64,000 nt of DNA, from NCBI GenBank assembly GCA_020241125.1, contig GCA_020241125.1_4708.1; one strand, written 5' to 3'. The DNA comes from a phage. Position 1 is the first letter of the stretch. Each line of letters starts with the position of its first letter. This document shows positions 12,347 to 56,254 of the stretch, piece after piece. Under the pieces are notes generated by a model. It did not search any database. It saw only the letters and a list, made by a program, of their open reading frames with translations, and was not told the DNA's origin. The position numbers were made by a program, and so were the translations under genes.

Positions 12347-12696
12347 CACATATCTTCAGTATGAATCGCTACTTCATACCCGCAGCATTACCTGCAGCTC
12401 CTGGTGTTACCAGGACGGAGAGATCATCTCATCACCCACGAAGGGTGTTCCGCGCTACCCTCAGCGAATTCGAGGGACATGATCGTTGAACCTTCCACCG
12501 ATAATCGGTGGCTAGGCTGCTGATTAAACATTGTACGTTGGGGTGGCATCCTGGTTCAGGACTGTCGTTGAAGCCTCCCAACATCCACTCACTTATTTCC
12601 GCCTTATCGGCTCCCATAAGGGCAGAGTGGCTTTAGCCCGTCTCAGCAATTCACGGAATTCAAGCTCTTCCTTTCAGAAGGCAGGGCCTCATCTGA
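12347..12696 (-). other. putative group I self-splicing intron (no ORF) in beta-prime gene
   Basis: About 350 nt between GYNA (exon 1) and DFDGD (exon 2); read-through hits a stop. Exon 1 ends in U, insert ends in G. Contains GGUUCAACGAUCAUG with complementary AGAUGAUC downstream and several compact hairpins including a UUCG tetraloop. Confidence 0.55.
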
Positions 12697-17284: not shown

Positions 17285-17304
17285 TAACCTCCCTCCTCCC
17301 TTGC

Positions 17305-17334
17305 ATCCTCCCAACCCGTAAGGGAAGGGAGGAT
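17305..17334. terminator. bidirectional stem-loop terminator between convergent genes
   Basis: ATCCTCCC / GGGAGGAT 8 bp stem enclosing inner CCC-GTAA-GGG; pyrimidine run upstream. Confidence 0.5.
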
Positions 17335-17350
17335 GGGGTGGTGGGTTATG

Positions 17351-19562: not shown

Positions 19563-19578
19563 AGGACGGCATAAAAAA
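19563..19578 (-). promoter_or_regulatory. TATGCCG element downstream of terminator
   Basis: Minus-strand CTTTTTTATGCCGTCC about 55 nt upstream of the 19504 ATG. Confidence 0.3.
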
Positions 19579-23610: not shown

Positions 23611-23623
23611 TACACGGCATAAA
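23611..23623 (-). promoter_or_regulatory. TATGCCG element downstream of terminator
   Basis: Minus-strand TTTTATGCCGTG about 20 nt upstream of the 23601 ATG. Confidence 0.3.
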
Positions 23624-25780: not shown

Positions 25781-26307
25781 TTAACGACAGCTTCCTCCCT
25801 CGGTGTTTTCGAGGGAGGTATTTGCCGTTTAAACACTTTCAGCACGTTCGCAAATTCAGCGGCAATAATACAGGCCGAGGTTGATAGCTTATTACTGAAA
25901 ATGAGATCGTCCGGTAAACAATCGAACTGAATACCGTATTGCGTCTTTGTCTCATCAACGATCAATGACGGTGTCGATCTTGTCTTCGCGATGTCGGTGA
26001 TATACAAACGTAGAAATAATTCACCGTCTTCGCTATCCATAAAACGATAGGCGTTACCAGAAAACGCAACACATGGCGTAACGATAAATTGAACACGATC
26101 GTCGGTCGGATGGATATTTAACCAACGTTCGATATCATTACTACTCACATTTCGCATATTTACTACGGTAAAAGCAAATAGCGTATCGTGATGTTTGGAA
26201 TAATGCAGCACGTACGCCGCACCTTTCTTTCTGTGAATCCCTTCAATGTATTCTATTGTCGTATAGCCGGATTTATATAGCTTTACTTGCGGTTTATCAC
26301 TCATCAT
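25771..26307 (-). CDS. hypothetical protein
   Basis: Track ORF 25771-26388; probable start at Met 28 (MMSDKPQ...) where ATG overlaps the upstream stop as ATGA. Confidence 0.5.
   Translation of the reverse strand: MMSDKPQVKLYKSGYTTIEYIEGIHRKKGAAYVLHYSKHHDTLFAFTVVNMRNVSSNDIERWLNIHPTDDRVQFIVTPCVAFSGNAYRFMDSEDGELFLRLYITDIAKTRSTPSLIVDETKTQYGIQFDCLPDDLIFSNKLSTSACIIAAEFANVLKVFKRQIPPSKTPREEAVVNQK
25794..25818 (+). terminator. intrinsic terminator
   Basis: CCTCCCTCG / CGAGGGAGG stem with 7-8 nt loop followed by TATTTGCCGTTT; overlaps the 3' end of the convergent minus-strand gene. Confidence 0.5.
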
Positions 26308-26603
26308 AACAACCCTTCCCGTTTCATCGCAGCACGCATACTTGCGTAAAGCGCATTCTTCATCGCACCTGGACGCAACGGATAACAAATCTCATATCGA
26401 CGTCCTTGTTTTACAGCAATTTTCCTTCCATTCAGAAACAACGTGCCATTATCCAGCAACAACTCACCTTGTAGTACCATGAGTCCTGCTTTAACATGAC
26501 GTCCTTCTTCTTTCGTTAAGACCTTATAGCCGTGTTTATCCAATAACCACAATTCGTAGATACCATGCGCAGCCTTCGGCATTACTTTCTTCTTCGTCGT
26601 CAT
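26304..26603 (-). CDS. hypothetical protein
   Basis: 99 aa track ORF; stop overlaps downstream start. Confidence 0.5.
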   Translation of the reverse strand: MTTKKKVMPKAAHGIYELWLLDKHGYKVLTKEEGRHVKAGLMVLQGELLLDNGTLFLNGRKIAVKQGRRYEICYPLRPGAMKNALYASMRAAMKREGLL

Positions 26604-31987: not shown

Positions 31988-32139
31988 CAATGTAACGGTA
32001 AAACTTTACTGACGTTGGTTATTATTTGAAGCATAGGGCTTCACCCAGGAGTACCATCCCTTTAAGTCGTTTGTCCTCTCCTGGTTAACTGTCGTTCTCT
32101 CACAGTGCTCGACAGACCAAAAATGCTCAGGCCTCATAG

Positions 32140-32168
32140 CCTCCTCTGGGAATGGAACCCAGAGGAGG
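32140..32168. terminator. bidirectional stem-loop terminator between convergent genes
   Basis: Perfect 11 bp stem CCTCCTCTGGG / CCCAGAGGAGG with 7 nt loop. Confidence 0.55.
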
Positions 32169-32180
32169 ACTATGTTTGCC

Positions 32181-34856: not shown

Positions 34857-36596
34857 TTATGCGACTTTACTAATAACGACTGCTGTGATACCGAGATGTA
34901 GGTCGACGCCATTCTGTACTTTAATCCAGCGGATATACAGGTTAGCGTTATCCTGTCCCGTACCACCTGGGACGTTATTGTTCCTATTCCATTGCGAGAT
35001 TTCGAAACGTTTCTGCACGTTAGGACCAACCATGATTTCAAAGTGGGTCGGTTCTGGTGCTTTCGATTCCGTTTTCTCAAGATAGAGCGGATGTGTCGCG
35101 TAGTAAAGTTGGTTCAACCATTCACCCAGATCTGAGTGTTTGTTCGTCAAGTCAACATACGCGTTACCAGCAACATCGTAAGTAAACAACGCTTTCGTGT
35201 TACGACCGTACACATCCGTTGTCGTCGGCGTTGTTTGCGAGCTGAACGTTACTGTCCAGTAATCACCGGATGTTGCCGAACCTGCTTGCAATAGCGTCAT
35301 TCGAATAGTCTGCGTATGACGTACGCGTTTGTAAACGGTAGGATCGACTTCATCTAACCAGATGTTGTACGCAAATTCCTGAGGTTGTCCGTATTTCTTC
35401 GGATTAAACTCAGGGCTGTTCAGCGCCAATTGTACTTTATCGGTTACGTTGTAGTAACGTTCACGGTCGACGTTGTACAACCAGAACACCAGCTCGTATC
35501 CCACAGCATCAGATACCCATTGCGGATAGCAGAACAGTTTAACACTGTAAGCCCCTTTCGCTTCTTTAGAAACGACGGTATAAGGCACACTGATGTGTTT
35601 CACCGCTCCTGGTAACGCGTAGGATGTGTCCTCATCGTCGTCCAGGTAGTAGTGTAACGCCAGCGGATGTTTGCTGTTGATGACCTGGGACGTGAAGACG
35701 TTAAGGCCGTCCAACACAACCTTGTTACCAGTAACCGGCCAATGTTTAATGGAACCATCACTGTAAGTGACTTCAGCCTGAAGGTCGACGGAATCCAGGT
35801 TGACGTTGATCGGTAACTCAAGCAGTTTGGTATCGCTGCTGCTCAGCCACGTTGATTTCAGTCGTACCCCGTCTTCCAGAATATATTTAATACCCTGGTC
35901 TGGGGTGCGTACATAGTCAGTGATACGAACGATCATGCGTTTCATGGATAGCGGCTGCGGACCGTCACCATAACCTACTACCATCACCTGCTCAAAATCT
36001 TCGACAGGCTTAATGCAGTAACCTTCACGAGGTGCCCAGATAGCTTTATTCGTTCCGTCTTTGTAAGCGATAAGCTGACACGGAATGAAATCGCTGATCT
36101 TATTCCCGCTGTTGTCATACATCGCACTGATGATTTCGCCTTTGGCGCTGATATCAGAACCGCGGAACACTGCGATACGTCGAATATCCGAGCCATGCAG
36201 ATGGAAACGACGATCGATGTTCATTGTAGCAGGGATCGTGTTCGTATTAATCAATACACGCCATGTATCGTACGACCACGTCGGGTCAATACCTTCAAAG
36301 GTTGTCGTCCCATCGCCCTGACCATCGAACGGAGCAGACAGCTGACCGATAAGTTTAAGGGTACTTAGTTTTGTGCGATCGTCTACGGCGATAACACGGT
36401 ACACCGCATTCGTATCCCAGTCTTCAACTTTATCGTCCACGTTGGGGACGTAAAGTTTCCAGTCTTCTTCAACGCCATTATAGATCTCTTTATACGCATA
36501 GGTGGTATAGCGTCTGTCGAGATCCTGAATAGCGAGTTTATCCGGATGCTGTTGTGCATAAAGCACCGGATTGGTAATCTCTCTTCCCATTATCAC
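34857..36596 (-). CDS. hypothetical protein, possibly virion-associated
   Basis: 579 aa track ORF in the block upstream of terL. Confidence 0.55.
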   Translation of the reverse strand: MIMGREITNPVLYAQQHPDKLAIQDLDRRYTTYAYKEIYNGVEEDWKLYVPNVDDKVEDWDTNAVYRVIAVDDRTKLSTLKLIGQLSAPFDGQGDGTTTFEGIDPTWSYDTWRVLINTNTIPATMNIDRRFHLHGSDIRRIAVFRGSDISAKGEIISAMYDNSGNKISDFIPCQLIAYKDGTNKAIWAPREGYCIKPVEDFEQVMVVGYGDGPQPLSMKRMIVRITDYVRTPDQGIKYILEDGVRLKSTWLSSSDTKLLELPINVNLDSVDLQAEVTYSDGSIKHWPVTGNKVVLDGLNVFTSQVINSKHPLALHYYLDDDEDTSYALPGAVKHISVPYTVVSKEAKGAYSVKLFCYPQWVSDAVGYELVFWLYNVDRERYYNVTDKVQLALNSPEFNPKKYGQPQEFAYNIWLDEVDPTVYKRVRHTQTIRMTLLQAGSATSGDYWTVTFSSQTTPTTTDVYGRNTKALFTYDVAGNAYVDLTNKHSDLGEWLNQLYYATHPLYLEKTESKAPEPTHFEIMVGPNVQKRFEISQWNRNNNVPGGTGQDNANLYIRWIKVQNGVDLHLGITAVVISKVA

Positions 36597-39187
36597 TCAC
36601 CTTTGATTGTGTAAAACTTCGTGAAGTCCACGCGATCTTTCAAGAACTCACGACTGACGCGTTCTAAGAACCGCAGTTGTTTAACCGTAACTTCAAGCGG
36701 CGTCCAACTGTCGTGTGGATGAATAGAGACCATCCGCCAATCGTAATTACGTAACGCAGGATCGTAGTCATAGAACCATTTATACGGCTCCATGAAATCC
36801 ATCAGTTTAACGTCCTGCATATCAGGATCGGGATCGATAACACCATTGATAAGATCGTACGTTACCGCCATCAACGTTGGGCTGATAAGCTGGTATTTGT
36901 TTTCAATCGTTACCGGCGTATCGTACTTCACACGAGGGAAATACAAGGACATATAGTCTTCAACGCGTTTATCGGTTTCAAGACTTTTGTCGCGTAGATA
37001 ATACGTGTCTGTGTTCACGAGACCACGGATAGGGGCAATAACATGGTAAATCGCATAAGGCACCCCATCGTTGACTTTGATGTCGGCAGGGTATTGCGTG
37101 TCCTCTGCGGTAACCACTTCGCTACGATCGTAAATACGTCCACCAACCACAATACGAACAACATGGTCGTCACGAACATTAAACACGTCGTCGTAAGAAA
37201 GCTGATTATGCATCGTCCAACCGGTATCGTAAACGGTTTCACCGGTTAAGTCCGTACGTGGAAAACCAGTACATCTCACGGTAACCGTGTGCGTGTTCCC
37301 TTCACTGAAATACCGTTTCGCGTTGATCATGATCGTTGGCCATTTTACGATATAATCGATATCGCGTACCAAGCTGTAGCTTTTGGTTGCTCGCTCGTCA
37401 CCTAACCATACTTCGATTTGACCAGGTTCGAAAGGCAGCGGATATTCAACATCAATACCCGTCGTAACATCCAACCATACGGTGTGGTTACGATGTTGTA
37501 TTGTGGTCTTATACGCTAAGAAGTAGGTGTCGAACAATACTAAACCGGTTTGCTTTCTTCCATCCAACGACCATTTTATTACCCCGTTCTCTTCCGTTAC
37601 CACAGAAGCATCGTCGGTAACATCCTTCCATGTGTTCGCGACAGGTTGTCCGTTACGAAGATTTACGCTATAACAGCGGTAACTCGCCCATTCACGGATT
37701 GGGACGTCGGCAACACCCATCACGTAATCAAGCGTTCTCCCACCAACACCCGATCGACCCTCAACATAGGACGTGGTTTCATATTGCGGATAAAAATGTC
37801 GGCCTGCCGGATGTTGCGTGATACCCAATAATAGACCGTCACTGTCGTACTCAAAGAACGTCGCATTTGCACGTAAACCCCATGGTACTTCAGCGGTAGG
37901 GGTACCCATATCGTCAGTAACGCGTTGTGGACTATCTGCAACCAGTTTTGCCATCGCGTTATACCCGTAAGCGGAGGTCACCATGTCGATCGTGATATTG
38001 CTTTCCTTATTACGCATGATGCGTGTATAATCACTGGCTTCAAGCGTGCGTGCAAAGAACTCGGGTATATTAGCGTTCTGTTCTAACATCGCACCGACGA
38101 TGACGTCGTCTGGAAGTTTATACAGTTCGTGGATGCGGTTATGTTCGAAGGTTAACTGCGTTTTCAAACCGCTATCACGGACAACCACTTCCAGGGTTAA
38201 ATCACGAAGCGATTCTGCTCCATCAACCCGTTCAACGAAGTAGCTGACATAATCAACAGGAATCCCGTAATCACGATGCGTGAGCATGCGGATACTATTT
38301 TCCTGGTTGGTATGGTAATAACGTCCTTTTCCGTTAGGCCCTTTCACGTAGATATCAACGTCATCACGATACCGGATTTTAGTATCCGCTTCATCTTTCG
38401 GCGGATGAATAAGATACTTCACTTTTTTGTCCAGATCGCTGTTGTACGTTTTAAGATCTTCTACACGGAAGCTGTACCGATGAACAACGGTACCGTCATA
38501 GACGACCTGAATGCTATCACCGATCTTAAAACTTGTCGGCGGAATGTCTTCAACCGCTTCACCATTGATACTGCAGTGCGTCCAGCCGATACCGGTTTCC
38601 TGAATCTTTTTACGCCAGGCGTATAGCTGACGCTGCCACTGTAGAACCTGTGTCGAGCTGGTTACAATCCCCCCAAGGACATGCACTTCACGCCCCGTCG
38701 GTTTCGTGTATGACGGATAGCCTTCTGCGAAGTCGGCGTTGAGATAGGTGCGCCAGTAATAATCACCAACGCCAAGGTCAGCGATATTCGGTTGGTCGAG
38801 CACACAGACCAGCATCGTTTCGTTTTCCAGATTACCCGTCCACGTTAATGTCAACGGGAATTCTTTACCGTCCTCGGTATAGATATTGTAATACGATCCC
38901 TTCACCTCACAGAACTTGCTGAGTTCTCGCCACCACAACCGACCCGCCCCGACATTAAAATCCTCCCCCATATGTCGTCCAATAACAAACACATGGAACG
39001 TATTGGTATCATCAGGAAGATTGAATGTACGATGCCAAGCCGTAAAGTTTTTTACTGCGCCGGTCTTTCCGGTAATACGACGCATCTTGATACGATGCTG
39101 GTTGTCCATTAATGGACGGCAGTTCACATTCAGCGCAGCATGATTTATCAAGTATTGCGCTGTAGGATTAGAAGCGTTCAACACCAC
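36593..39187 (-). CDS. hypothetical protein, possibly virion-associated
   Basis: 864 aa track ORF; start overlaps upstream stop. Confidence 0.55.
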   Translation of the reverse strand: MVLNASNPTAQYLINHAALNVNCRPLMDNQHRIKMRRITGKTGAVKNFTAWHRTFNLPDDTNTFHVFVIGRHMGEDFNVGAGRLWWRELSKFCEVKGSYYNIYTEDGKEFPLTLTWTGNLENETMLVCVLDQPNIADLGVGDYYWRTYLNADFAEGYPSYTKPTGREVHVLGGIVTSSTQVLQWQRQLYAWRKKIQETGIGWTHCSINGEAVEDIPPTSFKIGDSIQVVYDGTVVHRYSFRVEDLKTYNSDLDKKVKYLIHPPKDEADTKIRYRDDVDIYVKGPNGKGRYYHTNQENSIRMLTHRDYGIPVDYVSYFVERVDGAESLRDLTLEVVVRDSGLKTQLTFEHNRIHELYKLPDDVIVGAMLEQNANIPEFFARTLEASDYTRIMRNKESNITIDMVTSAYGYNAMAKLVADSPQRVTDDMGTPTAEVPWGLRANATFFEYDSDGLLLGITQHPAGRHFYPQYETTSYVEGRSGVGGRTLDYVMGVADVPIREWASYRCYSVNLRNGQPVANTWKDVTDDASVVTEENGVIKWSLDGRKQTGLVLFDTYFLAYKTTIQHRNHTVWLDVTTGIDVEYPLPFEPGQIEVWLGDERATKSYSLVRDIDYIVKWPTIMINAKRYFSEGNTHTVTVRCTGFPRTDLTGETVYDTGWTMHNQLSYDDVFNVRDDHVVRIVVGGRIYDRSEVVTAEDTQYPADIKVNDGVPYAIYHVIAPIRGLVNTDTYYLRDKSLETDKRVEDYMSLYFPRVKYDTPVTIENKYQLISPTLMAVTYDLINGVIDPDPDMQDVKLMDFMEPYKWFYDYDPALRNYDWRMVSIHPHDSWTPLEVTVKQLRFLERVSREFLKDRVDFTKFYTIKGE

Positions 39188-40115
39188 GGCATGCCTCCAG
39201 GAGGTATTTCATGTTGGCTTGGAAATCATTGACGTCACGCGCCATACGACGCTGATCCGCCATGAGACGAGCCAACACGGTATCACGGTAACCACGATCG
39301 TGGTCAGCAGCAGAGCATAAAAGAATAAATGTTGGTGGATGCTCTAAAGCAATCCCAGCAACTTCTTTACTATAACCCCCAACCCAGCTGTAAGCGGTGA
39401 TTTCAAACAACAACGCTTGGGTTAACGTGTTCAAACGGGGACTAATATTACTTTCTTTTAATGCTGTTACGAAAGCTGCCATGTTAGGGATATAACCCAG
39501 GTTTTCGGTTACGATACCGATGCTCGCAAAATCGTAACGAAGCGTTGTCTGGATGGTGCGCACCATAGTTAGTCTTTCATTATTTGTAAGGCTATCTTTA
39601 AACAGGCAAAGATAATACCATGCTGTTATGGTGGCAACATCACGACGTTGTTGAAGGTCCAGCCCTAAACGTTGTGTGATTTGTCCGCTAATCCAATCAC
39701 AAAAGACACGCATCGGGATAGGGCCAAGACGTTCAAAAGGACGTGTGCCCAAGGATTCCCATCCTACCTGAAGATACGCACGTGATTGAAGAAAGTTATA
39801 TTCACGTTCGTTAACAACGGTAGTACGCGATCCTGGGCGTGAAGTATCTGTTGGGGTGCGCGCGTAAGCGCGTTGGTCGATAACAACGCGCTGTCCGTCC
39901 ATCACTGTTTTAATGACCAACGGATGACCAAAAGAAGGGATATCGTCCAACGTATTTTTGTTGCCGATGACTTCGAGAACGGGAGTGTTTACGCCACTTT
40001 CTTCACCGGGTGCACTTAACAATCCGCCGACGTAAGCAACTTCGATAGCGGTTCGGATACGGTCAATGCCTTTTAGTTTTGTTCCAACAGTTGTGTCGTA
40101 AGGAGAGATGAACAT
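39168..40115 (-). CDS. hypothetical protein
   Basis: 315 aa ORF; AAAGGAA RBS; TATGCCG element about 22 nt upstream. Confidence 0.55.
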   Translation of the reverse strand: MFISPYDTTVGTKLKGIDRIRTAIEVAYVGGLLSAPGEESGVNTPVLEVIGNKNTLDDIPSFGHPLVIKTVMDGQRVVIDQRAYARTPTDTSRPGSRTTVVNEREYNFLQSRAYLQVGWESLGTRPFERLGPIPMRVFCDWISGQITQRLGLDLQQRRDVATITAWYYLCLFKDSLTNNERLTMVRTIQTTLRYDFASIGIVTENLGYIPNMAAFVTALKESNISPRLNTLTQALLFEITAYSWVGGYSKEVAGIALEHPPTFILLCSAADHDRGYRDTVLARLMADQRRMARDVNDFQANMKYLLEACRGVERF

Positions 40116-40125
40116 ATGTAATTCC

Positions 40126-40142
40126 TTTATTACGGCATATAA
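40126..40142 (-). promoter_or_regulatory. TATGCCG element
   Basis: Minus-strand TTATATGCCGTAATAAAGG just upstream of the 40115 ATG. Confidence 0.3.
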
Positions 40143-40190
40143 GAAAACGGGTTAAGCACACAGATTTACGCATAATTGTAATATTTTACG

Positions 40191-40203
40191 TTATGCCTAT
40201 GAC
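40191..40203 (+). promoter_or_regulatory. TATG-type promoter-like element upstream of tail-sheath candidate
   Basis: Plus-strand TTATGCCTATGAC about 60 nt upstream of the 40259 ATG; second TATG (AATTATGTCATAC) about 35 nt upstream. Confidence 0.3.
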
Positions 40204-40258
40204 ATTGTGTCACGTGTGCAATTATGTCATACAATTTCCTTAAATTAAGGAGAGTTCC

Positions 40259-42331
40259 ATGAGGCTTAAGAATAGCACGCCTCGCGCGATTTTTACGGGC
40301 TTTAAAGAGGGTCTTACCACGGATCCGGTTACAGCCCCAGAGATCACGCCCATTCACCTCCCGTATGTTTTCATTCAGGGTGGTCGTGGTAAAGAGGACA
40401 CCTTGCTGTTAACAGGGGACGCCCTGTCTACAGTCTACGGTGAAGATATGCTGAACTACCGCAGTAAGTACGCTTCTCCAGCAACACTGATTGCTCGCCA
40501 GGCGGCTTCTACAGGTAGCGCGATCTTCACAAAACGTTTGGTTGCGCCGGATGCAACGGCAGCACGCATCCGTATCGGTGTTGAAGTGGTCGCCGATAAA
40601 CTGGTCGTTTACCAGCGTAACGCTGACGGGTCCTTTATGAAGGACACCGACGGCAACAAAATCCCTGACGGCGATAAAACCGTTGACGGGGTGAAAATGC
40701 GTTGGATTGTTAACCACGACAAAGATGCCGTAGCGCCTAACGCCTTCGGTAAAGATGAAGTGGTTATCGGACAAATGACCGCAGCTGATGGTACCCAGAG
40801 CAACTACTATCCTATTCTGGATGGAATGGTGAGCTGGCGTGGTGCTGAAGGGGACAACATCGGCTTACGTCTGGAAGCACCGACCGCGCTGAGCAGCAAC
40901 CCTACCCGTACCGATATCATCGAACGTATCGGTGCTTTCCTGTACCGCATTCAGTTCGTGGAACGTAAGTCTTCACGAACTGCGCCGACGGTCATTCGTA
41001 CGATCAGCGGTATGGAACAAGAAACCTTCGCGTTGCAGGAAGGTGTTATCCAGCCTGATGACGAAACCGATCTGTCCTTCGGTAAAGTGGTCGTTGATGC
41101 CTACGAGTATAATGAAACGGGTAACACCCCGATCTTTGCTCCGATGGATCAGATGCATCTTTATCAGAAGAACATCGATGAAGTCGTCAAGAAGCTGTAC
41201 GAATCTGAAAGCAAAGTTAACAAAGATCTGTTAACCGACGTTGAATTCGTCGAAGGTCAGATGAACATCTTCACCGGTGTCGATTACAACGGCATCCCGT
41301 ATCAAACCATCGAAGTTCTCGATGCAGATCAGGGCGGCGTCATCTTTGATGGTACCAGCACCTTCTACGCAATTGATGGTAGCGACGGTGACGTCGACTG
41401 GGATACCTTCGACGCGTTAGCGAAACAGCAGTTCGAATCGTTCGGCAGAATGGGCGAAGATCTGGAAGACATGGCTTTCTATCCGTTCTCCATCGTGTAT
41501 GATATTGGTTACAAAGTCGACACGAAGAAAGCGATGGCAAACGTCTTGTCTCTGCGTCCGGATGTCATGATCATTGCGTCAACCCATACCTGGAAGGGTG
41601 TGGAACTGAATGTCGATGAAGAAAGCTCCATGGGCGCGATGCTGCGTAACTACTATCGTCTGCATCCAGAAAGCGTGCTTTACAATACCCCAGCTTGCCG
41701 TGCTGCGGTATTCATGCAATACGGTGAAAGCATCGAAGCGCCAAGCCTGGGTAAAGTTCCGTTGACGCTGGAAGTTGCTAATAAACTTGCAACTTACATG
41801 GGTGCTTCGGATGGTGTTATCCGCGGTACCCGCATCGATAACAACCCTGGTAACGTTGTCACAACGATGCGTAAAATCAACAAGACGTATCGTAACGCAA
41901 CGGTCCGCGATCGTGATTGGGAAAACGGCTTGAACTATGTTCAGACCTACAACCGTAATTCCAACTTCTTCCCGGCTTGGGGCACGATCTACAATAACGA
42001 CCGTTCGGTATGGCGTTCGTTGATCAACGTGATCATCGGTTGCGATCTGACTCGCGTGTGCTATCGTCTCTGGGCAGAAACCACCGGTACTACAGGAATG
42101 GATGAAACCCTGTTCCTGAAACTGATGGGCGAACGCTTCCTGGAATACACCACGGGCCGTTACAACGACCATGTGACTGTTAAGGGACGTTTCTACCTGG
42201 ATAAAGAAGACGGTTACAACGGCTTCAGCTATCACGGCGATATCAGCCTGATCGGCGATCCAGGCATGACCGTGGGTACGTTTACCATCACCGGGCTGCG
42301 TCGTAACACCGAAGCAGCAGAAGCGGCGTAA
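40259..42331 (+). CDS. major virion structural protein; candidate contractile tail sheath
   Basis: 690 aa; strongest RBS in window (TAAGGAGAG); followed 15 nt later by a 296 aa gene and a bidirectional terminator. Assigned by size and gene order only. Confidence 0.45.
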   Translation: MRLKNSTPRAIFTGFKEGLTTDPVTAPEITPIHLPYVFIQGGRGKEDTLLLTGDALSTVYGEDMLNYRSKYASPATLIARQAASTGSAIFTKRLVAPDATAARIRIGVEVVADKLVVYQRNADGSFMKDTDGNKIPDGDKTVDGVKMRWIVNHDKDAVAPNAFGKDEVVIGQMTAADGTQSNYYPILDGMVSWRGAEGDNIGLRLEAPTALSSNPTRTDIIERIGAFLYRIQFVERKSSRTAPTVIRTISGMEQETFALQEGVIQPDDETDLSFGKVVVDAYEYNETGNTPIFAPMDQMHLYQKNIDEVVKKLYESESKVNKDLLTDVEFVEGQMNIFTGVDYNGIPYQTIEVLDADQGGVIFDGTSTFYAIDGSDGDVDWDTFDALAKQQFESFGRMGEDLEDMAFYPFSIVYDIGYKVDTKKAMANVLSLRPDVMIIASTHTWKGVELNVDEESSMGAMLRNYYRLHPESVLYNTPACRAAVFMQYGESIEAPSLGKVPLTLEVANKLATYMGASDGVIRGTRIDNNPGNVVTTMRKINKTYRNATVRDRDWENGLNYVQTYNRNSNFFPAWGTIYNNDRSVWRSLINVIIGCDLTRVCYRLWAETTGTTGMDETLFLKLMGERFLEYTTGRYNDHVTVKGRFYLDKEDGYNGFSYHGDISLIGDPGMTVGTFTITGLRRNTEAAEAA

Positions 42332-42346
42332 TGAGAGGAGTCCATA

Positions 42347-43237
42347 ATGCGTCCTGATAATACCCTACTCGGTGAACAGGGTGTTGGTGCTCTTAGCAAC
42401 GCGGCTATGGTCGATATTCGTGCAGGTGCCCAAAACGGGTACATCAGCAATATCGGTACGTACGTTGCTAACGCCAACTACATTCCGAACCAAATGTTCT
42501 GTCTCCTGCTGGAGGCACCACGTGGTTTCAACTATCTACCTAACCCGGATGTACAGATTGGTTATCTGAAGGCGTTGGTAGAAGAAGTTGCGCATTCGAT
42601 TACCGGTCTGCAACGCGGATTGGAAGTTGAATTCGTTAGCGTCCCGGTTTCTGGTTCCGGTGAAATCCAGGAAGAAGTCTCTGACGTTAAACGTCCTCGC
42701 TCTAACCCGACTTTCGGGATCTATGAGAAAGAAGGTCGTTCCGTTAGTTACTTCCTGGAACAATGGATCACGTATCTGTTGATGGATCCGGATGCCAAAT
42801 ACCCGATGTTGTCGTCTATCGTATCCACTGGTGGTCCAACCGACCTGCTGGCGGATTATCGTAGCGCAACAATGCTGTTCGTTGAGCCAGACCGCCAACA
42901 CAAAAAAGTGGTTAACGCCTGGCTGTGCACGAACATGATGCCTCACGGTACCGGTGACTGGACATCACGTCGTAACAAGAACGATGCGCCAAACGTGGTA
43001 GAATTGAGCATTCAGTTCACAGCGTTAACACAGACCAACTACGGCGTGCGTGCTTTTGCACAACGTCTGCTGGATAAGATGAACCTGCTCAAAGTGAACC
43101 CGGATTTCCGTCCGGCTTATCTGAGCGACATCGATCCGGCTGTGGCAGCGCAGAAGGTTGGCTACACCTTCGACTTTGATAACAACGATACCTTTGAGGT
43201 ACCGAATACTTATCAAAACGTAACACCTCGCGTGTAA
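42347..43237 (+). CDS. virion structural protein; candidate tail tube
   Basis: 296 aa; GAGAGGAG RBS; immediately after the sheath candidate. No motif verified. Confidence 0.4.
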   Translation: MRPDNTLLGEQGVGALSNAAMVDIRAGAQNGYISNIGTYVANANYIPNQMFCLLLEAPRGFNYLPNPDVQIGYLKALVEEVAHSITGLQRGLEVEFVSVPVSGSGEIQEEVSDVKRPRSNPTFGIYEKEGRSVSYFLEQWITYLLMDPDAKYPMLSSIVSTGGPTDLLADYRSATMLFVEPDRQHKKVVNAWLCTNMMPHGTGDWTSRRNKNDAPNVVELSIQFTALTQTNYGVRAFAQRLLDKMNLLKVNPDFRPAYLSDIDPAVAAQKVGYTFDFDNNDTFEVPNTYQNVTPRV

Positions 43238-43263
43238 CGTAAAAAAAAAAGCATATTAACCTC

Positions 43264-43300
43264 CCTTCCTTCCCCGGCCTTGACGGCTAGGGAAGGAAGG
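43264..43300. terminator. bidirectional intrinsic terminator
   Basis: 11 bp stem CCTTCCTTCCC / GGGAAGGAAGG with inner GCC/GGC; A10 run upstream and TTTATGGTTTATTT downstream. Confidence 0.7.
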
Positions 43301-43312
43301 TTTATGGTTTAT

Positions 43313-43852
43313 TTACTGTTTGTTCGTGGCTTCACGAATGAAAATGACATCAGGATATTCTTGAGATTCAATGAATTCAGGATTACGATAACGACGAATA
43401 TGACGCATCGTTGTACAAGCAAGTTTGTAAAGATGTTCCTCCTCACGTTGTGTTAATAACATCAGTTGCGCGTCTGGAATCACGAATGGGAGTCTTTCAT
43501 TCACGTATTCCCGAAGGTCATCGAGATCATCGTGATGAATGCCCTCTGAGAGCTTATATAACGCTTCCAGCAATTCTAATCCACCGAACTGGTAACTTCC
43601 TATTGTCGTCTTAAACAATGCGCCAGAACGCGTGGTGGATGCTCTATCGGCGACATCGTATTGTTCTAACATATATCCGTAGACCATGCTACGTCGATCC
43701 AGTGTATCCGTAACGAGATTACGCCACCGTTCCAGTCTTTCGAGCGCTTTGTCGATAGAGTAAACGATCATGCCATGTTCATCCAACTCTTCCGCAATAC
43801 CCAATAGTTCATTGTTGTTAGGTTTTGCTGCACCGATAAGAAAAACACTCAT
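43313..43852 (-). CDS. hypothetical protein
   Basis: 179 aa track ORF. Confidence 0.5.
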   Translation of the reverse strand: MSVFLIGAAKPNNNELLGIAEELDEHGMIVYSIDKALERLERWRNLVTDTLDRRSMVYGYMLEQYDVADRASTTRSGALFKTTIGSYQFGGLELLEALYKLSEGIHHDDLDDLREYVNERLPFVIPDAQLMLLTQREEEHLYKLACTTMRHIRRYRNPEFIESQEYPDVIFIREATNKQ

Positions 43853-44313
43853 TACTCAAACTCCTTATTCCAAAACTCGATTAATGAATCGAGCTGTTCC
43901 TTACTGGTTATCTCACCTCCCCTAACAAAATGAAATCGTTCTTGAATGGCGATCTTTTCAAGGATATCGGTAAGCAAATGACGGTGACAGAAATTTCCTG
44001 CAGGACAATAACACCCTAACACCACAACCGGATGGGAGAATAAAGCCAACCATTCCGGTGTATGATCAACAAAGCTTTTGCGCATAAGCGCGTAGTAGCC
44101 TATGGTATATTCATCCTCGGTTAACGTTTTTGATTTGATTCCTGTAACAAGTTCCCATGAAGGTGCGAAGAGTGGGTTACCTGTTTTCACCGTCGTGTCC
44201 AGTAGAAACGCTCGTGTGTCTGAAAGCCAACGATATTTGGCTAATTGAAGGGTGTATAAAAACACAGCGCTAACCCCAAAGGATAAAAAATAAAACCTTG
44301 ACATAACCACCAC
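43852..44313 (-). CDS. hypothetical protein
   Basis: 153 aa track ORF with hydrophobic N-terminal stretch; start uncertain. Confidence 0.45.
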   Translation of the reverse strand: MVVMSRFYFLSFGVSAVFLYTLQLAKYRWLSDTRAFLLDTTVKTGNPLFAPSWELVTGIKSKTLTEDEYTIGYYALMRKSFVDHTPEWLALFSHPVVVLGCYCPAGNFCHRHLLTDILEKIAIQERFHFVRGGEITSKEQLDSLIEFWNKEFE

Positions 44314-44369
44314 CGCAACCCCATACAGGGCTACGGTGGGGTCATACAGAGAGACGTGTTAAGTTACAA

Positions 44370-44849
44370 TCAGTCTTTCAGCAGCTCAGCTGCATACGCA
44401 CTGATGTTGTCGCGAATATGCTTAACCTGAGTTGTTGGGAAAGATTTCTTATACGCGGTGGTCAGGCGTCCGTAAACCTGTTTCTTCTCGTTAGAGCCGA
44501 AACCAACTTCAGCGCTACGTTGAACCGTTGCGGACACAACGTCTTTGCCTAGCGGCAGGGTTACAGAAACAACGTCAACCTGCTTGTTATCCGCCATGAA
44601 CTGCGCGCCAACGCGACCTACCGCCAGACCATGAGCCAGACCGATATCGGTGGTCAGTTTCTGTGCTTTTTCCAGGATTTCTTTTTCTTCCGGCGTTACC
44701 AGAGTACCCAGGAAATCACTGCCTAACTTCTGGCTACCAGATTCGTCCAGTTTAATACCAGCGGCGATTTTATCAGAAAGAGCCTGAACTTCCGGACGTA
44801 CGTTAGAAGTGGTTTCAGTCGCTACGGTGGTTTCTACAGCTTCAGACAT
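44370..44849 (-). CDS. hypothetical protein
   Basis: 159 aa; GGAG RBS; early-promoter-like motif D upstream. Confidence 0.55.
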   Translation of the reverse strand: MSEAVETTVATETTSNVRPEVQALSDKIAAGIKLDESGSQKLGSDFLGTLVTPEEKEILEKAQKLTTDIGLAHGLAVGRVGAQFMADNKQVDVVSVTLPLGKDVVSATVQRSAEVGFGSNEKKQVYGRLTTAYKKSFPTTQVKHIRDNISAYAAELLKD

Positions 44850-44964
44850 GTTAATACTCCAATTAGTTTTTTCGATCGATCAAAAGGATAAAATCAGAAG
44901 ATTCTTTCTTCATAGGGAAAACACAAGTCGGTTAAGGTTTACTTCTTAAACTCCTTGCGTTCTA

Positions 44965-45010
44965 TCAGTTAGGTAATATAGACCTCAACTTTTTTCCAAT
45001 AATACTGCAA
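44965..45010 (-). promoter_or_regulatory. early-promoter-like motif, copy D
   Basis: Plus-strand GTTAGGTAATATAGACCTCAACTTTTTTCCAATAATACTG; minus-strand TATATTACC about 120 nt upstream of the 44849 start. Confidence 0.45.
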
Positions 45011-45785
45011 CGTTCCGCGCGAAACGAATTACCTTGTAATTGCGGGTCTGTTTGATATCTTCTTCCCCATCACTGTCACCTTCAGACGGATCTTCCCACA
45101 TGAAGTCTTGTTCGTCCGCTTTCTGTAAGTAGCGGTATAACTGCACCATGCTGCGTGCGGTCGGAGAGATAGCGCGAAGCTCATCCAATTCTTCATCCGT
45201 GAGCAGAACATGCGGTGAACGCAGTGGTTCCATTGTTGTATTACACAACAGACGAATCAGCAGATCGACGCACGGAATAACCGAACCTGGTGAGGCGATT
45301 TCTGGGTGTAATGTATAACCCCAATATACGGTGTTAAAATACGTCAAAACAGCAGGTAGTGACGGATGTTCCATCGCACGGCCAATTTGCTGTCTTACGA
45401 TAGATGCACGATCGTTCAATACATCGAAAGTAATCTGCTGCGGTTCCATAACCGCAAGTGAAATACCGTATGCGTCAGCCACACCCAGGATTTCATGAAG
45501 GGCCGAACGTTCTTCTTCGGTGGATATTGTCCCGATTGCCTTACGCCCTGCAAGGTCAATCAGCATCGGTGAAACAGCTTCTTTAACCGCATTAAAAGAA
45601 GCCTGGTAAGCATGTTTGTGAATATACAGTGTCCACGCTAATGCGCGCTCAGCCGCATGAAGTAGATCGACATAAGACAGTTCTTGATGGCATGGGCCAT
45701 ACACACTCACAGCAAGCTTGGTGGCTTTCTCAGAGGCTTGCATAATAACATCTGGTGATTTAGGCATATCGCGTTCTTCTTGCAT
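44985..45785 (-). CDS. hypothetical protein
   Basis: 266 aa track ORF. Confidence 0.55.
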   Translation of the reverse strand: MQEERDMPKSPDVIMQASEKATKLAVSVYGPCHQELSYVDLLHAAERALAWTLYIHKHAYQASFNAVKEAVSPMLIDLAGRKAIGTISTEEERSALHEILGVADAYGISLAVMEPQQITFDVLNDRASIVRQQIGRAMEHPSLPAVLTYFNTVYWGYTLHPEIASPGSVIPCVDLLIRLLCNTTMEPLRSPHVLLTDEELDELRAISPTARSMVQLYRYLQKADEQDFMWEDPSEGDSDGEEDIKQTRNYKVIRFARNVAVLLEKS

Positions 45786-45870
45786 CTTTTAAATTCCTAC
45801 TTAACAATAAAGTTCATATACGGCGTATGTATCCGTAGAATAATGGGTTCTGGTAAGATCTTACATCAAA

Positions 45871-45885
45871 ATGACGGCATAAAAA
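45871..45885 (-). promoter_or_regulatory. TATGCCG element downstream of terminator
   Basis: Minus-strand ACTTTTTATGCCGTCA about 90 nt upstream of the 45785 ATG. Confidence 0.3.
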
Positions 45886-45887
45886 GT

Positions 45888-45915
45888 ACCTCCTTACCCA
45901 CATGGGTAAGGAGGT
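45888..45915 (-). terminator. intrinsic terminator
   Basis: 12 bp perfect stem ACCTCCTTACCC / GGGTAAGGAGGT with 4 nt loop; U-run follows on minus strand. Confidence 0.6.
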
Positions 45916-46039
45916 TCGTCCATCACGACGAAAGGACGTTATGTGACGCGGTGTCCATAACGGCCCTGGTAGCAGGCATCAAAGATAACAAAAAGGATGT
46001 AAGTTGAGCTAAACCACCTAAATACGGTAACGATTACTT

Positions 46040-46078
46040 CCGTACACAATATAACGCAACATCTTTTTTACCAATGAT
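46040..46078 (-). promoter_or_regulatory. early-promoter-like motif, degenerate copy E
   Basis: Plus-strand CACAATATAACGCAACATCTTTTTTACCAAT resembles copies A-D, but overlaps the 3' end of gene 46068-46877 and lies upstream of a terminator. Confidence 0.25.
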
Positions 46079-46877
46079 TAAAGCTGCCCGCTTTAACGAC
46101 ATCACAACGTAGGTGGTTACGTAACTGATCCAGGAAGACAACCGGACTGTCGCCAGACAACATAGCCAGCGCGTGTTGGCCACCGGAACGAACAACAAGC
46201 TCATCGACCATTGGTGCTGTAATCGGGAGATCATACGCATCCATGATTGCTTTGGCTTCCTGTTCTACGTCTTTCTGGAACCCTTCCATCGTCGGAGAGT
46301 CATATTTGGTTGCAAACTCGATCCCAGGCAAGTTAACGTAATCGTAAGTCATGACACGGGTCATAACACGACGGCGCTCACGTTGCCAGATCTGAGGATC
46401 GGTTAACGCGCGAACCGAAAAACACACGTTCACCAACGGCGTTTCAAAATCTTTACGTAATGGATCACCGTACGGCCCGCAAGGAATAACATCCCCCATC
46501 ACCATCACGACAGGACGACCACGACGATCGCGTCCCGCTTCTTCTAACCAAATCTTAGAAAAGCAATGGCTTACCTTCGTTTCTTCGATTCGTAACGCTC
46601 GCTGCAAAAAGCTGGTTGCATCCTGACCGATCTCTGGTTTAGGGTGACCGTATTCACCTTTCAACGAACGATTGCGTGCGTTTGTTTGCAGTAAGCTGTT
46701 TTCCAGAAACAGCGGTTTCGAACGCTCAAGTTCGTAATATTCTTCGGTATTGTTAAAACAGTTAAATCCGCCGATAACACAGGTGTAGGCACCGTCAGCA
46801 TTAGGACGGATAATACCTTTCTTATTCACACCAAGATAACTGGTGCAAACAAGATTACTAATTGGTGGTTGCATCAT
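46068..46877 (-). CDS. hypothetical protein
   Basis: 269 aa ORF; AAAGGGG upstream. Confidence 0.5.
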   Translation of the reverse strand: MMQPPISNLVCTSYLGVNKKGIIRPNADGAYTCVIGGFNCFNNTEEYYELERSKPLFLENSLLQTNARNRSLKGEYGHPKPEIGQDATSFLQRALRIEETKVSHCFSKIWLEEAGRDRRGRPVVMVMGDVIPCGPYGDPLRKDFETPLVNVCFSVRALTDPQIWQRERRRVMTRVMTYDYVNLPGIEFATKYDSPTMEGFQKDVEQEAKAIMDAYDLPITAPMVDELVVRSGGQHALAMLSGDSPVVFLDQLRNHLRCDVVKAGSFNHW

Positions 46878-49923: not shown

Positions 49924-50156
49924 TACTGCGCTCCCTCCAACGCATTACTACCTACGGGTTCTTTGGTTTCCAGACGGCTGTTTAAGCGCGCAGCAACCGC
50001 ATCTTCCAATCCCAACGGCATAACCTTTTTGTTCACGTCAGGATCGGCGGCATCATTACCAACGGTTTGACGTACGACCTCAGCAACCAACGTTACCGCG
50101 TTCGTCAGCGCAACAAAGCTCGCTGCCCGAGCCGTGTTAAGTTGTTCTTGGTTCAT
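49923..50156 (-). CDS. hypothetical small protein
   Basis: 77 aa track ORF. Confidence 0.4.
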   Translation of the reverse strand: MNQEQLNTARAASFVALTNAVTLVAEVVRQTVGNDAADPDVNKKVMPLGLEDAVAARLNSRLETKEPVGSNALEGAQ

Positions 50157-54607: not shown

Positions 54608-56254
54608 TTAGGCTCCACGAGGTCCCGTTAAGTTGCGTAATAGGAACGCAACCGTATCGTAACCAATATCGATGTTGAATTTATTTTTACCACTTACCCA
54701 GAAAGCTCGCTTCTTGTGCGAGTTGGTAATTTCGTCAATAGCTTCCATGGAATAAAGAACGTTAACCGAGACCGTATCACCATCAAAGTCCCCACCAAGT
54801 CCGGCGAGGTATGGCGCAGGGACAATAGTCGTTTCTACGAACGAAGCATTAGGTAACCAGTCGGGGTATTCCCATGCGATAAATCGTTCATCCGTTATTG
54901 GTTCCCAGTTACTATCCAGTTCGGTTTTCGGTTTTGCGGCGACGGTTGTACGTGCGTAACAGGTTAACGGGATAACGGATTGCATACCTGATACCGGATA
55001 ACGTGTTACCATCGCAGCCAGGTTATTCCAGTACTTATATCCGGCAATATAGATAAGCTCGGTGTAAGTAATGGGGTGAACATCCGCGCCAGGTTTATTC
55101 AACATCTCCGGGGGTAATTCACTCATGTCACGGAATAACCGAAACGAATCGTTGTTCACATAGACGAGGCAAAGATATCGTCCATTGACCATGATAGGCT
55201 CGTTACGCACGCCAGGATCGCTTAAGGTGTTCAGTAAACGTTCTATTCCGTCCCATGTTGTAAAGTCATCGATGGTGTCTGGATCAAGCGTGACGCGCTC
55301 ACGTTCCATCGTTTCGGTATCAATAAGTTCAACTTCTGTAACATCACGGACAAATATTTCCTGCAAAATACCTGTACGTAACGCATGTTGCGTTACTGGG
55401 AGAGCGGCTTTACTCATCTGGTATAACCCTAACTGAACCGCGGTACAGGAAGGCTGGTTAGGCGACCCTAATACCTCCGTTGTGGGGTTAATTGCCGAAA
55501 TAACGTTACGGGTTGAGTTCCAAACGCGACGTGAACCAAACTTACCTTGGAAGATCCCTTTCTTACCCTGGAACATATCCAACAGTAAAGCGTAGATATC
55601 GTTGAATGTTCTCTGTAAGCTCCAGCGCTGGCCGTCGTAAACGGGATCGGAATAATCTTTTAATCCATCAGGGACGGTGTTAGAAATTGCAAGGAAACGA
55701 CGATACAACTCCGTGATTTCTTGCTCGCTTTCATACCCACCTTCTTTTACTTCTATTTCACGTAAGCCTGCAGGCAATACCAGTAAGTGACGGGTCATCG
55801 CTTTGAACATGTTCTCTTCGACAACTTTAATTCGTAGCTCTCGTTGAGCTGAACCCGTTGAAACGAACTTGATATCCGCGACGTGTTGTGCAAAGAACCC
55901 GTATCCTGTTTGTCCTGTTAATGCATCAGACGCAACGAAGTCGCGTTGTTCGGGATCCCACCGAGCGTACGCCTTCCCCGACATGATATCGCCATAGAGG
56001 TGTTTTAATCGAATGAGACGGTCGTAAATGACAGGATGCAGGATTTCAACCTTGCATTCAATCACCGCAAATCGACGGTCTCGATCTTCACTACCCGCAC
56101 TACCAAAGATGGTGTAAGAATAGAAACCATCATCGTGGAAATTACCGGTGCTTGGGTCACGAATGCTCATGCTCGTGATCTTGGGGAGAAAACGTAACTG
56201 CTGTTTATCGAGGTGTAAAATACTAATATTAAACGGCTCTCTGACTTTAGCCAT
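54608..56254 (-). CDS. virion-type RNA polymerase beta-prime-like subunit, N-terminal fragment
   Basis: Track ORF 54608-56296; likely start at Met 15 with AAGAGGAG. Motifs LLVLPAGLREI (VLPPDLRP), ITELYRRF (DLNDLYRR), GGDFDGDTVSVNVLYSMEA (NADFDGDQMAVH). Confidence 0.7.
   Translation of the reverse strand: MAKVREPFNISILHLDKQQLRFLPKITSMSIRDPSTGNFHDDGFYSYTIFGSAGSEDRDRRFAVIECKVEILHPVIYDRLIRLKHLYGDIMSGKAYARWDPEQRDFVASDALTGQTGYGFFAQHVADIKFVSTGSAQRELRIKVVEENMFKAMTRHLLVLPAGLREIEVKEGGYESEQEITELYRRFLAISNTVPDGLKDYSDPVYDGQRWSLQRTFNDIYALLLDMFQGKKGIFQGKFGSRRVWNSTRNVISAINPTTEVLGSPNQPSCTAVQLGLYQMSKAALPVTQHALRTGILQEIFVRDVTEVELIDTETMERERVTLDPDTIDDFTTWDGIERLLNTLSDPGVRNEPIMVNGRYLCLVYVNNDSFRLFRDMSELPPEMLNKPGADVHPITYTELIYIAGYKYWNNLAAMVTRYPVSGMQSVIPLTCYARTTVAAKPKTELDSNWEPITDERFIAWEYPDWLPNASFVETTIVPAPYLAGLGGDFDGDTVSVNVLYSMEAIDEITNSHKKRAFWVSGKNKFNIDIGYDTVAFLLRNLTGPRGA

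Follow-up and report, generated by a model that had tools for sequence, protein, structure and literature searches.

A stretch of phage DNA of 64,000 nucleotides (the window) holds two adjacent genes that run against their neighbours, which raises the question of what they encode and where their transcript begins and ends. The source is a Goslar-like, nucleus-forming jumbo phage (Chimalliviridae, genus Goslarvirus), and its DNA is ~97.5% identical to that of Escherichia phage vB_EcoM_Goslar across 3.3 kb. Open reading frames lie on the + strand exactly at 40259-42331 (690 aa) and 42347-43237 (296 aa), and the flanking genes on both sides (36593-39187, 39168-40115, 43313-43852 and onward) are all on the - strand, so that the rightward two-gene island described in the initial annotation holds. 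The features of the locus are as follows.

40116-40258, between divergent genes: intergenic control region of 143 bp, between the phiKZ-gp28-like gene (- strand) and the sheath gene (+ strand)
40247-40252, + strand: Shine-Dalgarno sequence AAGGAG of the sheath gene, 6-nt spacer, anti-SD duplex of -9.2 kcal/mol
40259-42331, + strand: tail sheath gene, 690 aa, orthologue of Goslar gp218 and phiKZ gp29
42335-42340, + strand: Shine-Dalgarno sequence GAGGAG of the tube gene, 6-nt spacer, duplex of -8.6 kcal/mol
42347-43237, + strand: tail tube gene, 296 aa, orthologue of Goslar gp217 and homologue of phiKZ gp30
43241-43250, + strand: A10 homopolymer in the 3' UTR of the tube gene, U10 on the - transcript
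43264-43300, no strand assigned: putative terminator hairpin with arms CCTTCCTTCCC (43264-43274) and GGGAAGGAAGG (43290-43300)
43301-43314, + strand: T-rich tract TTTATGGTTTATTT, interrupted, directly 3' of the stem
43313-43852, - strand: convergent neighbour, 179 aa, homologue of Goslar gp216, of unknown function

The 690-aa product is identified by homology as the contractile sheath subunit. It matches the solved Goslar sheath chain over residues 1-690 (PDB 11ei_L, E = 0), phiKZ gp29 over residues 4-686 (PDB 9xpf_A, E = 4.7e-80), PDB 8au1_A (6.5e-78) and the 'tail sheath' family PHROG 3242 across 4-685 (1.5e-189). The Goslar orthologue is likewise annotated 'tail sheath'. A further match, to Pfam PF20961 phiKZ_gp29PR (2.8e-56; 191 bits, cutoff 26), lies at aa 142-377; this family models the outer, protease-resistant sheath domain. 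The protein is 97% identical to Goslar gp218, and the 20 amino-acid substitutions that separate the two all fall inside residues 127-397, an interval enclosing the gp29PR domain. Cryo-EM of the Goslar sheath resolved a six-fold helical assembly around the tube, and a contracted tail was seen in a micrograph (bioRxiv 10.64898/2026.04.21.720040).

The 296-aa product is, by the same kind of comparison, the inner tail tube subunit. It has the same sequence as PDB 11ec_AG, 'Tail Tube of Bacteriophage Goslar' (100% identity, 1e-202), the genes of the two phages differing at 11 synonymous and 0 nonsynonymous sites, and it matches Pfam PF23806 Phage_TTP_14 (8.9e-113, 377 bits against a cutoff of 27) with aa 2-286 of 296 aligned to model positions 4-289 of 292. 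The relation to phiKZ gp30 (PHIKZ030, PDB 9xpf_G, 3e-45) is more distant, with an identity of only ~35%, but both products remain full-length homologues of phiKZ gp29 and gp30 (PDB 9xpf, 3j0h).

These assignments bear out the proposal that the genes encode a sheath and tube pair of abundant virion proteins. The initial annotation had left room for a capsid or some other abundant virion protein outside the tail, a reading that draws on the sizes and the strong codon bias, properties that suit any abundant structural protein. This reading is now extremely improbable and was rejected: each protein aligns end to end, and almost without differences, with a solved chain of the tail sheath or tail tube, Pfam and PHROG point to the tail for both, and a capsid family is absent from the Pfam, PHROG and PDB results for either protein. 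The major capsid protein of Goslar, gp41, is encoded elsewhere (bioRxiv 10.64898/2026.04.21.720040). Because near-identical solved structures exist, the fold of both proteins can be regarded as settled.

The arrangement of the genes is also that of known relatives. In Goslar (NC_048170.1, 197222-200200; PDB 11ei, 11ec, 11hf, 11lc, 11lx, 36za), gp218 and gp217 have the same order, spacing and Shine-Dalgarno sites, and the region upstream of them (40116-40258 here) is 100% identical. The sheath gene lies directly upstream of the tube gene in Goslar, phiKZ, PhiEaH1 and PCH45, and the placement of gp27-like and gp28-like genes (- strand) beside sheath and tube (+ strand) is kept in the last three; as here, gp27 and gp28 of phiKZ are divergent and upstream. 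The phiKZ + strand block, however, goes on with gp30.1, gp31 and gp31.1, and does not form a two-gene island. On the other side, the convergent 179-aa gene, for which a PHROG search returned no match, is the final gene of a - strand block that runs into the hairpin.

High expression of the pair, as claimed earlier, is supported by codon bias, which ranks 3rd and 4th among 53 genes of the window for sheath (Fop 0.688, Nc 41.0) and tube (Fop 0.662, Nc 44.7). The same measure singles out the nuclear shell protein and gp214, which is present at > 200 copies per virion. Layer counts from the Goslar virion tail, 47 for the sheath and 46 for the tube with six subunits each, agree with this (bioRxiv 10.64898/2026.04.21.720040), and in Goslar RNA-seq data the tail sheath groups with the later, phage-nucleus-dependent genes. 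The further claim that the two genes carry the strongest Shine-Dalgarno sequences in the window is wrong. By anti-SD duplex energy they rank ~16th (sheath) and ~20th (tube) of 55 gene starts, and longer matches occur at several other genes, among them TAAGGAGGA for 26304-26603 (- strand) and AAAGGAGGA for 11450-12088 (- strand). The sheath site is thus good, though not the strongest, and that of the tube gene sits inside the 15-nt gap between the sheath stop codon and the tube gene.

The late promoter of phiKZ is TATG, with the G at +1 (PMC4666361). Candidate TATG sites for the non-virion RNA polymerase (nvRNAP) occur upstream of the sheath gene at 40192-40195, 40198-40201 and 40223-40226 on the + strand, a motif that is too short to be diagnostic or, with three candidates, to locate the promoter. 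The same divergent region contains an exact TATGCCGT on the - strand (40132-40139), and this sequence is enriched across the window, with 7 matches against 2.2 expected. A generic promoter scan found fewer sigma-70-like sites than in shuffled sequence. The late genes of these phages are not known to be transcribed by the host polymerase, so no promoter is proposed from that scan.

At the other end of the pair, the tube stop at 43237 and the convergent stop codon at 43313-43315 leave a 75-bp gap that contains a single hairpin. Its arms form a perfect 11-bp stem enclosing 15 nt, within which an inner stem of 3-4 bp (43276-43279 with 43285-43288) closes a 5-nt apical loop. Among the 11 intergenic hairpins of the window it ranks first in stability, at -27.3 kcal/mol on the + strand and -28.2 on the - strand. 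Folding of the region gives z-scores of -4.8 (+) and -4.1 (-), and none of 200 shuffled sequences does equally well. Strong hairpins of the window concentrate between genes, 10 of 15 falling within the ~9% intergenic share, and in most of the strong intergenic ones (T)TTAT comes next on the transcribed strand. Two hairpins internal to the sheath gene (40908-40935 and 40952-40982) were rejected as signals, being weak and inside coding sequence.

Several searches missed the hairpin or came back empty. A generic terminator scan of the window did not call the hairpin because its loop exceeds 8 nt, an Rfam scan of the whole window at gathering thresholds gave no match, and a scan of genome contigs for the hairpin flank gave none either. 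The Goslar RefSeq record annotates terminators elsewhere and none at the equivalent position. Stems and flanks of the hairpin are invariant in six Goslar-like genomes, and hairpins stand at the equivalent position in phiKZ, PhiEaH1 and PCH45, with a similar flank in PhiEaH1. Three Goslar-like IMG/VR contigs were found via the tube protein, two of which a pattern scan also recovered.

A known parallel is the experimentally derived intrinsic terminator motif of phiKZ, BCCYCCCCHWWDGGGRRGGBYTTATKYYGT (Putzeys et al. 2024, PMC10914365). Like this motif, the hairpin is intergenic and just past a stop codon, and has a GC-rich stem with a pyrimidine-rich 5' arm (CCTTCCTTCCC) and a purine-rich 3' arm (GGGAAGGAAGG), followed directly by TTTATG on the + strand. 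The + strand flank, TTTATGG, is the same as that after phiKZ gp30.1, where a hairpin of the same stem-plus-TTTATG type follows the gene. The hairpin described here differs from the motif in its longer, 11-bp stem, in a 15-nt loop with an inner stem where the motif has a loop of 4 nt, and in the bases past TTATG, which diverge from KYYGT. Given a very stable hairpin and then TTTATG, it is reasonable to read the element as the + strand terminator of the sheath-tube transcript, as had been proposed.

Whether it also acts in the other direction is less straightforward. The locus resembles a canonical bacterial bidirectional terminator in having one strong hairpin between convergent genes, an A-run upstream and a T-rich tract downstream. 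It was indeed first described as an A10-hairpin-T-run terminator stopping transcription from both directions; of this description the hairpin is real and the A10 exists, but the A10 is not adjacent to the stem and the 'T-run' is the interrupted TTTATGGTTTATTT. Between the A10 and the core stem there are 13 nt, or 7 nt if the weak extension of the stem is counted, and the + strand U-tract reads UUUAUGGUUUAUUU. The T-rich tract is invariant in 6 of 6 genomes, and its end overlaps the stop codon of the convergent gene. Its interruption and the distance of the A-run set the element apart from the canonical type, as does the polymerase expected to read it, the phage nvRNAP and not the host enzyme. 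On the - strand the flank is GAGGTTAATATGC, with no match to TTAT(K). A U-tract directly 3' of the stem on both strands is therefore not found; the - direction does not fit the canonical signal, and at 13 nt from the core stem U10 is too far away for a canonical intrinsic terminator.

These features lend some weight to a narrower reading, in which the hairpin ends only the + strand sheath-tube transcript while the - transcript reads through, collides or is trimmed back to the hairpin, which on that side would stabilise the 3' end against exonucleases. The - strand has GAGGUUAAUAUGC between stem and U10, with neither an adjoining U-tract nor an exact TTAT, and the A-run varies between 8, 10 and 12 nt among relatives (10 here, 12 in Goslar), which suggests weak constraint. 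Yet none of the six genomes has a run shorter than 8 nt, and the hairpin, equally stable on the - strand, is the sole strong structure in the convergent gap. The other convergent junctions examined for structure (17285-17350 and 31988-32180) also have a single hairpin each, and convergent genes separated by bidirectional terminator regions are on record for phiKZ (6 regions; PMC10914365) and 201phi2-1 (15). Termination of the + transcript alone is thus possible but rather unlikely, and bidirectional action of the hairpin is plausible. Since no other strong structure stands between the convergent genes, the hairpin probably serves the opposing - transcript as well.

A separate observation concerns the centre of the hairpin. 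The central 15 nt (43275-43289) are the exact reverse complement of the loop in Goslar. This phage and Goslar are the closest pair on both flanks, yet their loops are opposite, and both loop orientations are present in both sub-clades of the six genomes. A flip of the same kind is seen at a second hairpin (45888-45915). The six genomes are related differently on the two sides of the hairpin at 43264-43300, which suggests a mosaic junction nearby.

It might be asked on this basis whether the inverted repeat acts mainly as DNA, as a cruciform or a recombination site at a module boundary, and not as an RNA signal. Exact inversion of the 15-nt centre among close relatives requires a DNA-level event at the repeat, and the change of kinship on either side of it is compatible with such a role. 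Loop inversion is, however, expected as a by-product of any perfect inverted repeat, while in the make-up of its arms, its place behind a stop codon and the TTTATG on its 3' side the element agrees with mapped phiKZ RNA terminators. Both loop orientations are moreover nearly isoenergetic as RNA, which fits selection acting on the RNA stem alone. A mainly DNA-level function therefore appears improbable, and the hairpin is better read as an RNA terminator.

A more speculative proposal is that Goslar-like terminator hairpins are recurrent hot spots of small inversions and that TTATG(CCGT) may double as an initiator of nvRNAP late promoters, which we put forward tentatively and consider doubtful at present. 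If true, recurrent inversion would imply that the arms repeatedly switch templates or recombine while the DNA is replicated inside the phage nucleus. The second idea would turn the many hairpins with TTATG(CCGT) behind them into terminator-promoter cassettes, and the published 'terminator motif' of phiKZ would need a new interpretation in its 3' half.

Taken as a whole, the locus is very probably the sheath-tube bicistron of a Goslar-like phage, co-transcribed late by nvRNAP and with the hairpin at 43264-43300 as its terminator. Sheath and tube would be transcribed together, late in infection, by the phage non-virion RNA polymerase from a short TATG-type promoter within the 143-bp region at 40116-40258. 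A moderate Shine-Dalgarno site of its own for each gene would yield roughly equal amounts of the two products. The transcript would end at the stable pyrimidine/purine hairpin, followed by UUUAUG, and the same hairpin probably also ends or stabilises the opposing - transcript.

That the two genes encode sheath and tube is already known from Goslar, whose tail structure has been solved and where combined cryo-EM and mass spectrometry identified gp218 as the sheath and gp217 as the tube (bioRxiv 10.64898/2026.04.21.720040). With atomic structures and virion copy numbers of Goslar published, the significance of the present assignment beyond correct annotation is small. The Goslar tube gene, still a 'virion structural protein' in RefSeq, can now be named, and a strong, unannotated terminator of the phiKZ type can be added to the maps of Goslar-type genomes. 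The hairpin could also serve as a model for studying termination by the phage-encoded RNA polymerase, and the enriched TATGCCGT together with the loop-inversion polymorphism offers cheap leads for transcription mapping in the chimalliviruses of E. coli.

The 3.3-kb region holding the two rightward genes is 97.5% identical to positions 197063-200365 of Escherichia phage vB_EcoM_Goslar (NC_048170.1), whose record labels gp218 'tail sheath' and gp217 'virion structural protein'. The ORF listing places the genes 15 nt apart:

40259-42331, + strand, sheath ORF, 690 aa
42347-43237, + strand, tube ORF, 296 aa

Residues 1-690 of the 690-aa protein match the Goslar PDB chain 11ei_L, 'Tail sheath protein gp29' (E = 0), and the protein also matches phiKZ gp29 (9xpf_A, 4.7e-80). 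The 296-aa protein is 100% identical to 11ec_AG, 'Tail Tube of Bacteriophage Goslar', and matches phiKZ gp30 (3e-45). Family searches of the pair returned phiKZ_gp29PR (2.8e-56) and Phage_TTP_14 (8.9e-113) in Pfam, and 'tail sheath' (1.5e-189) in PHROGs. Both gp218 and gp217 are modelled in the 3.4 Å map of the Goslar tail, which has C6 symmetry with 47 sheath layers and 46 tube layers, and both serve as high-copy standards for virion mass spectrometry (cryo-EM preprint, 10.64898/2026.04.21.720040). The sheath and tube pair suggested in the initial annotation is therefore correct, and these matches rule out a capsid or other non-tail fold. The finding is an ordinary one, as the proteins are known and structurally characterised, and are encoded here by a new phage closely related to Goslar.

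Genes on the - strand flank the pair, 36593-39187 and 39168-40115 upstream and 43313-43852 plus at least seven others downstream. Since all neighbours are on the - strand, the two genes form a real rightward island, as first annotated. The adjacent upstream gene, 39168-40115, is a homologue of phiKZ gp28 (Pfam PhiKZ_VTX, 3.6e-88), and the other is a homologue of phiKZ gp27 and Goslar gp220, the baseplate spoke protein (Pfam DUF7193). The order gp27-gp28 on the - strand followed by gp29-gp30 on the + strand is kept in phiKZ, Erwinia phage PhiEaH1 and Serratia phage PCH45. In phiKZ, however, the + strand block runs on beyond the tube gene, so the pair does not stand as a two-gene island in every phage. 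The gp28 homologue, a vertex-binding protein in phiKZ, is a conserved neighbour of the sheath gene; its orthologue gp219 was not seen at the Goslar capsid vertex, where a gp65 domain fills the space (10.64898/2026.04.21.720040). A homologue of the tube is present in 288 phage records; all of these seem to be phiKZ-like jumbo phages, and only Goslar exceeds 60% tube identity.

All 20 nonsynonymous changes between the sheath and its Goslar counterpart fall in residues 127-397, which span the Pfam gp29PR domain (142-377), while 40 synonymous changes are scattered along the whole gene. Outside this segment the sheath carries synonymous changes only, as does the entire tube (11 synonymous, 0 nonsynonymous). 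Compared per residue across three sheaths of the same length (window, Goslar and UViG_3300045988; the 692-aa UViG_3300011560 sheath was left out), 22 of 24 variable positions lie inside the segment.

The Shine-Dalgarno sites, AAGGAG (sheath) and GAGGAG (tube), each with a 6-nt spacer, are not the strongest in the window, contrary to what was first proposed: their anti-SD duplex energies (-9.2 and -8.6 kcal/mol) rank about 16th and 20th among 55 gene starts, and several other genes carry AAGGAGG-type sites. Scored against Ikemura-type optimal codons of E. coli, the sheath gene has a preferred-codon fraction (Fop) of 0.688 and the tube gene one of 0.662, with Nc values of 41.0 and 44.7, placing them third and fourth of 53 window genes in codon bias. 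Above them stand the gp214 homologue, 44370-44849(-), and the nuclear shell protein chimallin, 14040-15935(-), with Fop of 0.81 and 0.78 and Nc of 36 and 35, respectively. The measure tracks abundance, because one of these two is the nuclear shell protein and the other a homologue of the uncharacterised Goslar gp214, of which each virion holds more than 200 copies (10.64898/2026.04.21.720040).

In Goslar RNA-seq the tail sheath is among the later, nucleus-dependent genes (10.1101/2023.09.20.558163), consistent with its being transcribed by the non-virion RNA polymerase of the phage. In phiKZ, the late promoter for this enzyme is TATG, whose G is position +1 (PMC4666361). The divergent 143-bp region upstream of the sheath gene, identical in Goslar, contains:

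40192, 40198 and 40223, + strand, candidate late-promoter TATG
40132-40139, - strand, exact TATGCCGT

The TATGCCGT element occurs seven times in the window against 2.2 expected, a count reached in 0 of 100 shuffles; its remaining copies are:

10844-10851, 19566-19573, 23614-23621, 45874-45881 and 50015-50022, - strand
11789-11796, + strand

Five of the seven copies are intergenic, on the coding strand and shortly upstream of genes, several directly after a hairpin. The TATG of the phiKZ late promoter lies within the element, which also equals TTATKYYGT, the 3' portion of the terminator motif published for phiKZ; the placement and content of the element hint at terminator-promoter cassettes.

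Between the tube gene and the convergent gene 43313-43852(-) lies an inverted repeat, 43264-43300, with perfect 11-bp arms CCTTCCTTCCC / GGGAAGGAAGG and an inner stem of 3-4 bp. At -27.3 kcal/mol (+) and -28.2 (-) it is the most stable intergenic hairpin in the window, the ten others ranging from -17 to -25 kcal/mol; for the 88-nt region the folding z-score is -4.8, and 0 of 200 shuffles fold equally well. The A10-hairpin-T-run described initially holds only in part: the A10 run (43241-43250) is 13 nt from the stem, or 7 nt counting a weak AACC/GGUU extension, and the T-rich tract is the interrupted TTTATGGTTTATTT. The terminator motif derived from ONT-cappable-seq of phiKZ, BCCYCCCCHWWDGGGRRGGBYTTATKYYGT, describes a pyrimidine/purine hairpin with TTAT after it (PMC10914365). 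On the + strand the repeat shares this arm composition and has TTTATG directly after the stem, and its flank is the same as that of the hairpin after phiKZ gp30.1, GCCTCCCTTCGGGGAGGCTTTATGTTGT. In PhiEaH1 and PCH45, too, a GC hairpin flanked by T-rich sequence lies directly 3' of the tube gene. Of 15 strong hairpins in the window, 10 fall in its intergenic part (~9%), and (T)TTAT comes next on the transcribed strand after most. The repeat thus likely ends the sheath-tube transcript as a phiKZ-type terminator.

Beyond the stem, the - strand reads GAGGUUAAUAUGC and then U10, departing from both the phiKZ motif and the canonical rule for bacteria. Action in both directions is plausible, at about even chances, because the 75-bp gap between the convergent genes holds no other hairpin, this one is as stable on the - strand as on the +, and there are precedents between convergent genes in phiKZ (six bidirectional regions; PMC10914365) and in 201phi2-1 (15 regions; PMC11512511). 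The Goslar record has predicted terminators elsewhere, with none annotated at this position. The element would be a terminator of known kind, well supported in the + direction and uncertain in the other.

Further differences from Goslar lie elsewhere. Two insertions in Goslar RNA polymerase subunit genes, 168195-169660 (HNH endonuclease gp186 and a group I intron) and 211754-213798 (a group I intron and gp206), are missing from the window at 12689-12698 and 54787-54789. The counterpart genes, 12643-13947(-) and 54608-56254(-), are uninterrupted, and an Rfam search of the window found no intron. At a second terminator-like intergenic hairpin, 45888-45915, with a 12-bp stem followed by ACTTTTTATGCCGT on the - strand, the 4-nt loop is ACAT in the window and its reverse complement, ATGT, in Goslar. 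Three further hairpins differ by single loop substitutions only, and none of the arms compared differs in its stem. The A homopolymer that follows the tube stop codon varies in length among close relatives, from 8 in ERZ1643250 to 12 in Goslar, with four genomes at 10.

Pairwise distances among six Goslar-like genomes (41226-46586 region) are unequal on the two sides of the 43264-43300 hairpin, as for ERZ1643250 and UViG_3300011560 (2.6% left, 5.8% right), a mismatch that suggests that a mosaic junction, left by recombination, lies close to where the convergent genes meet. The 15-nt centre of the hairpin (43275-43289) reads CGGCCTTGACGGCTA in the window and its exact reverse complement, TAGCCGTCAAGGCCG, in Goslar, while arms and flanks are identical. 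The genomes divide three each way:

Loop orientation as in the window: window, IMG/VR UViG_3300011560, ERZ1643250 NODE-25
Loop orientation as in Goslar: Goslar, IMG/VR UViG_3300045988, OGZS01000006

Orientation is independent of flank relatedness: the window and Goslar are opposite although they form the closest pair on either flank, diverging by 2.1% and 1.9%, and the two UViG genomes, 1.8% apart on the right, are opposite too. As RNA, the two orientations are nearly isoenergetic. That close pairs are split means that at least one inversion, and probably several, took place, and the pattern implies that small inversions have recurred at this repeat.
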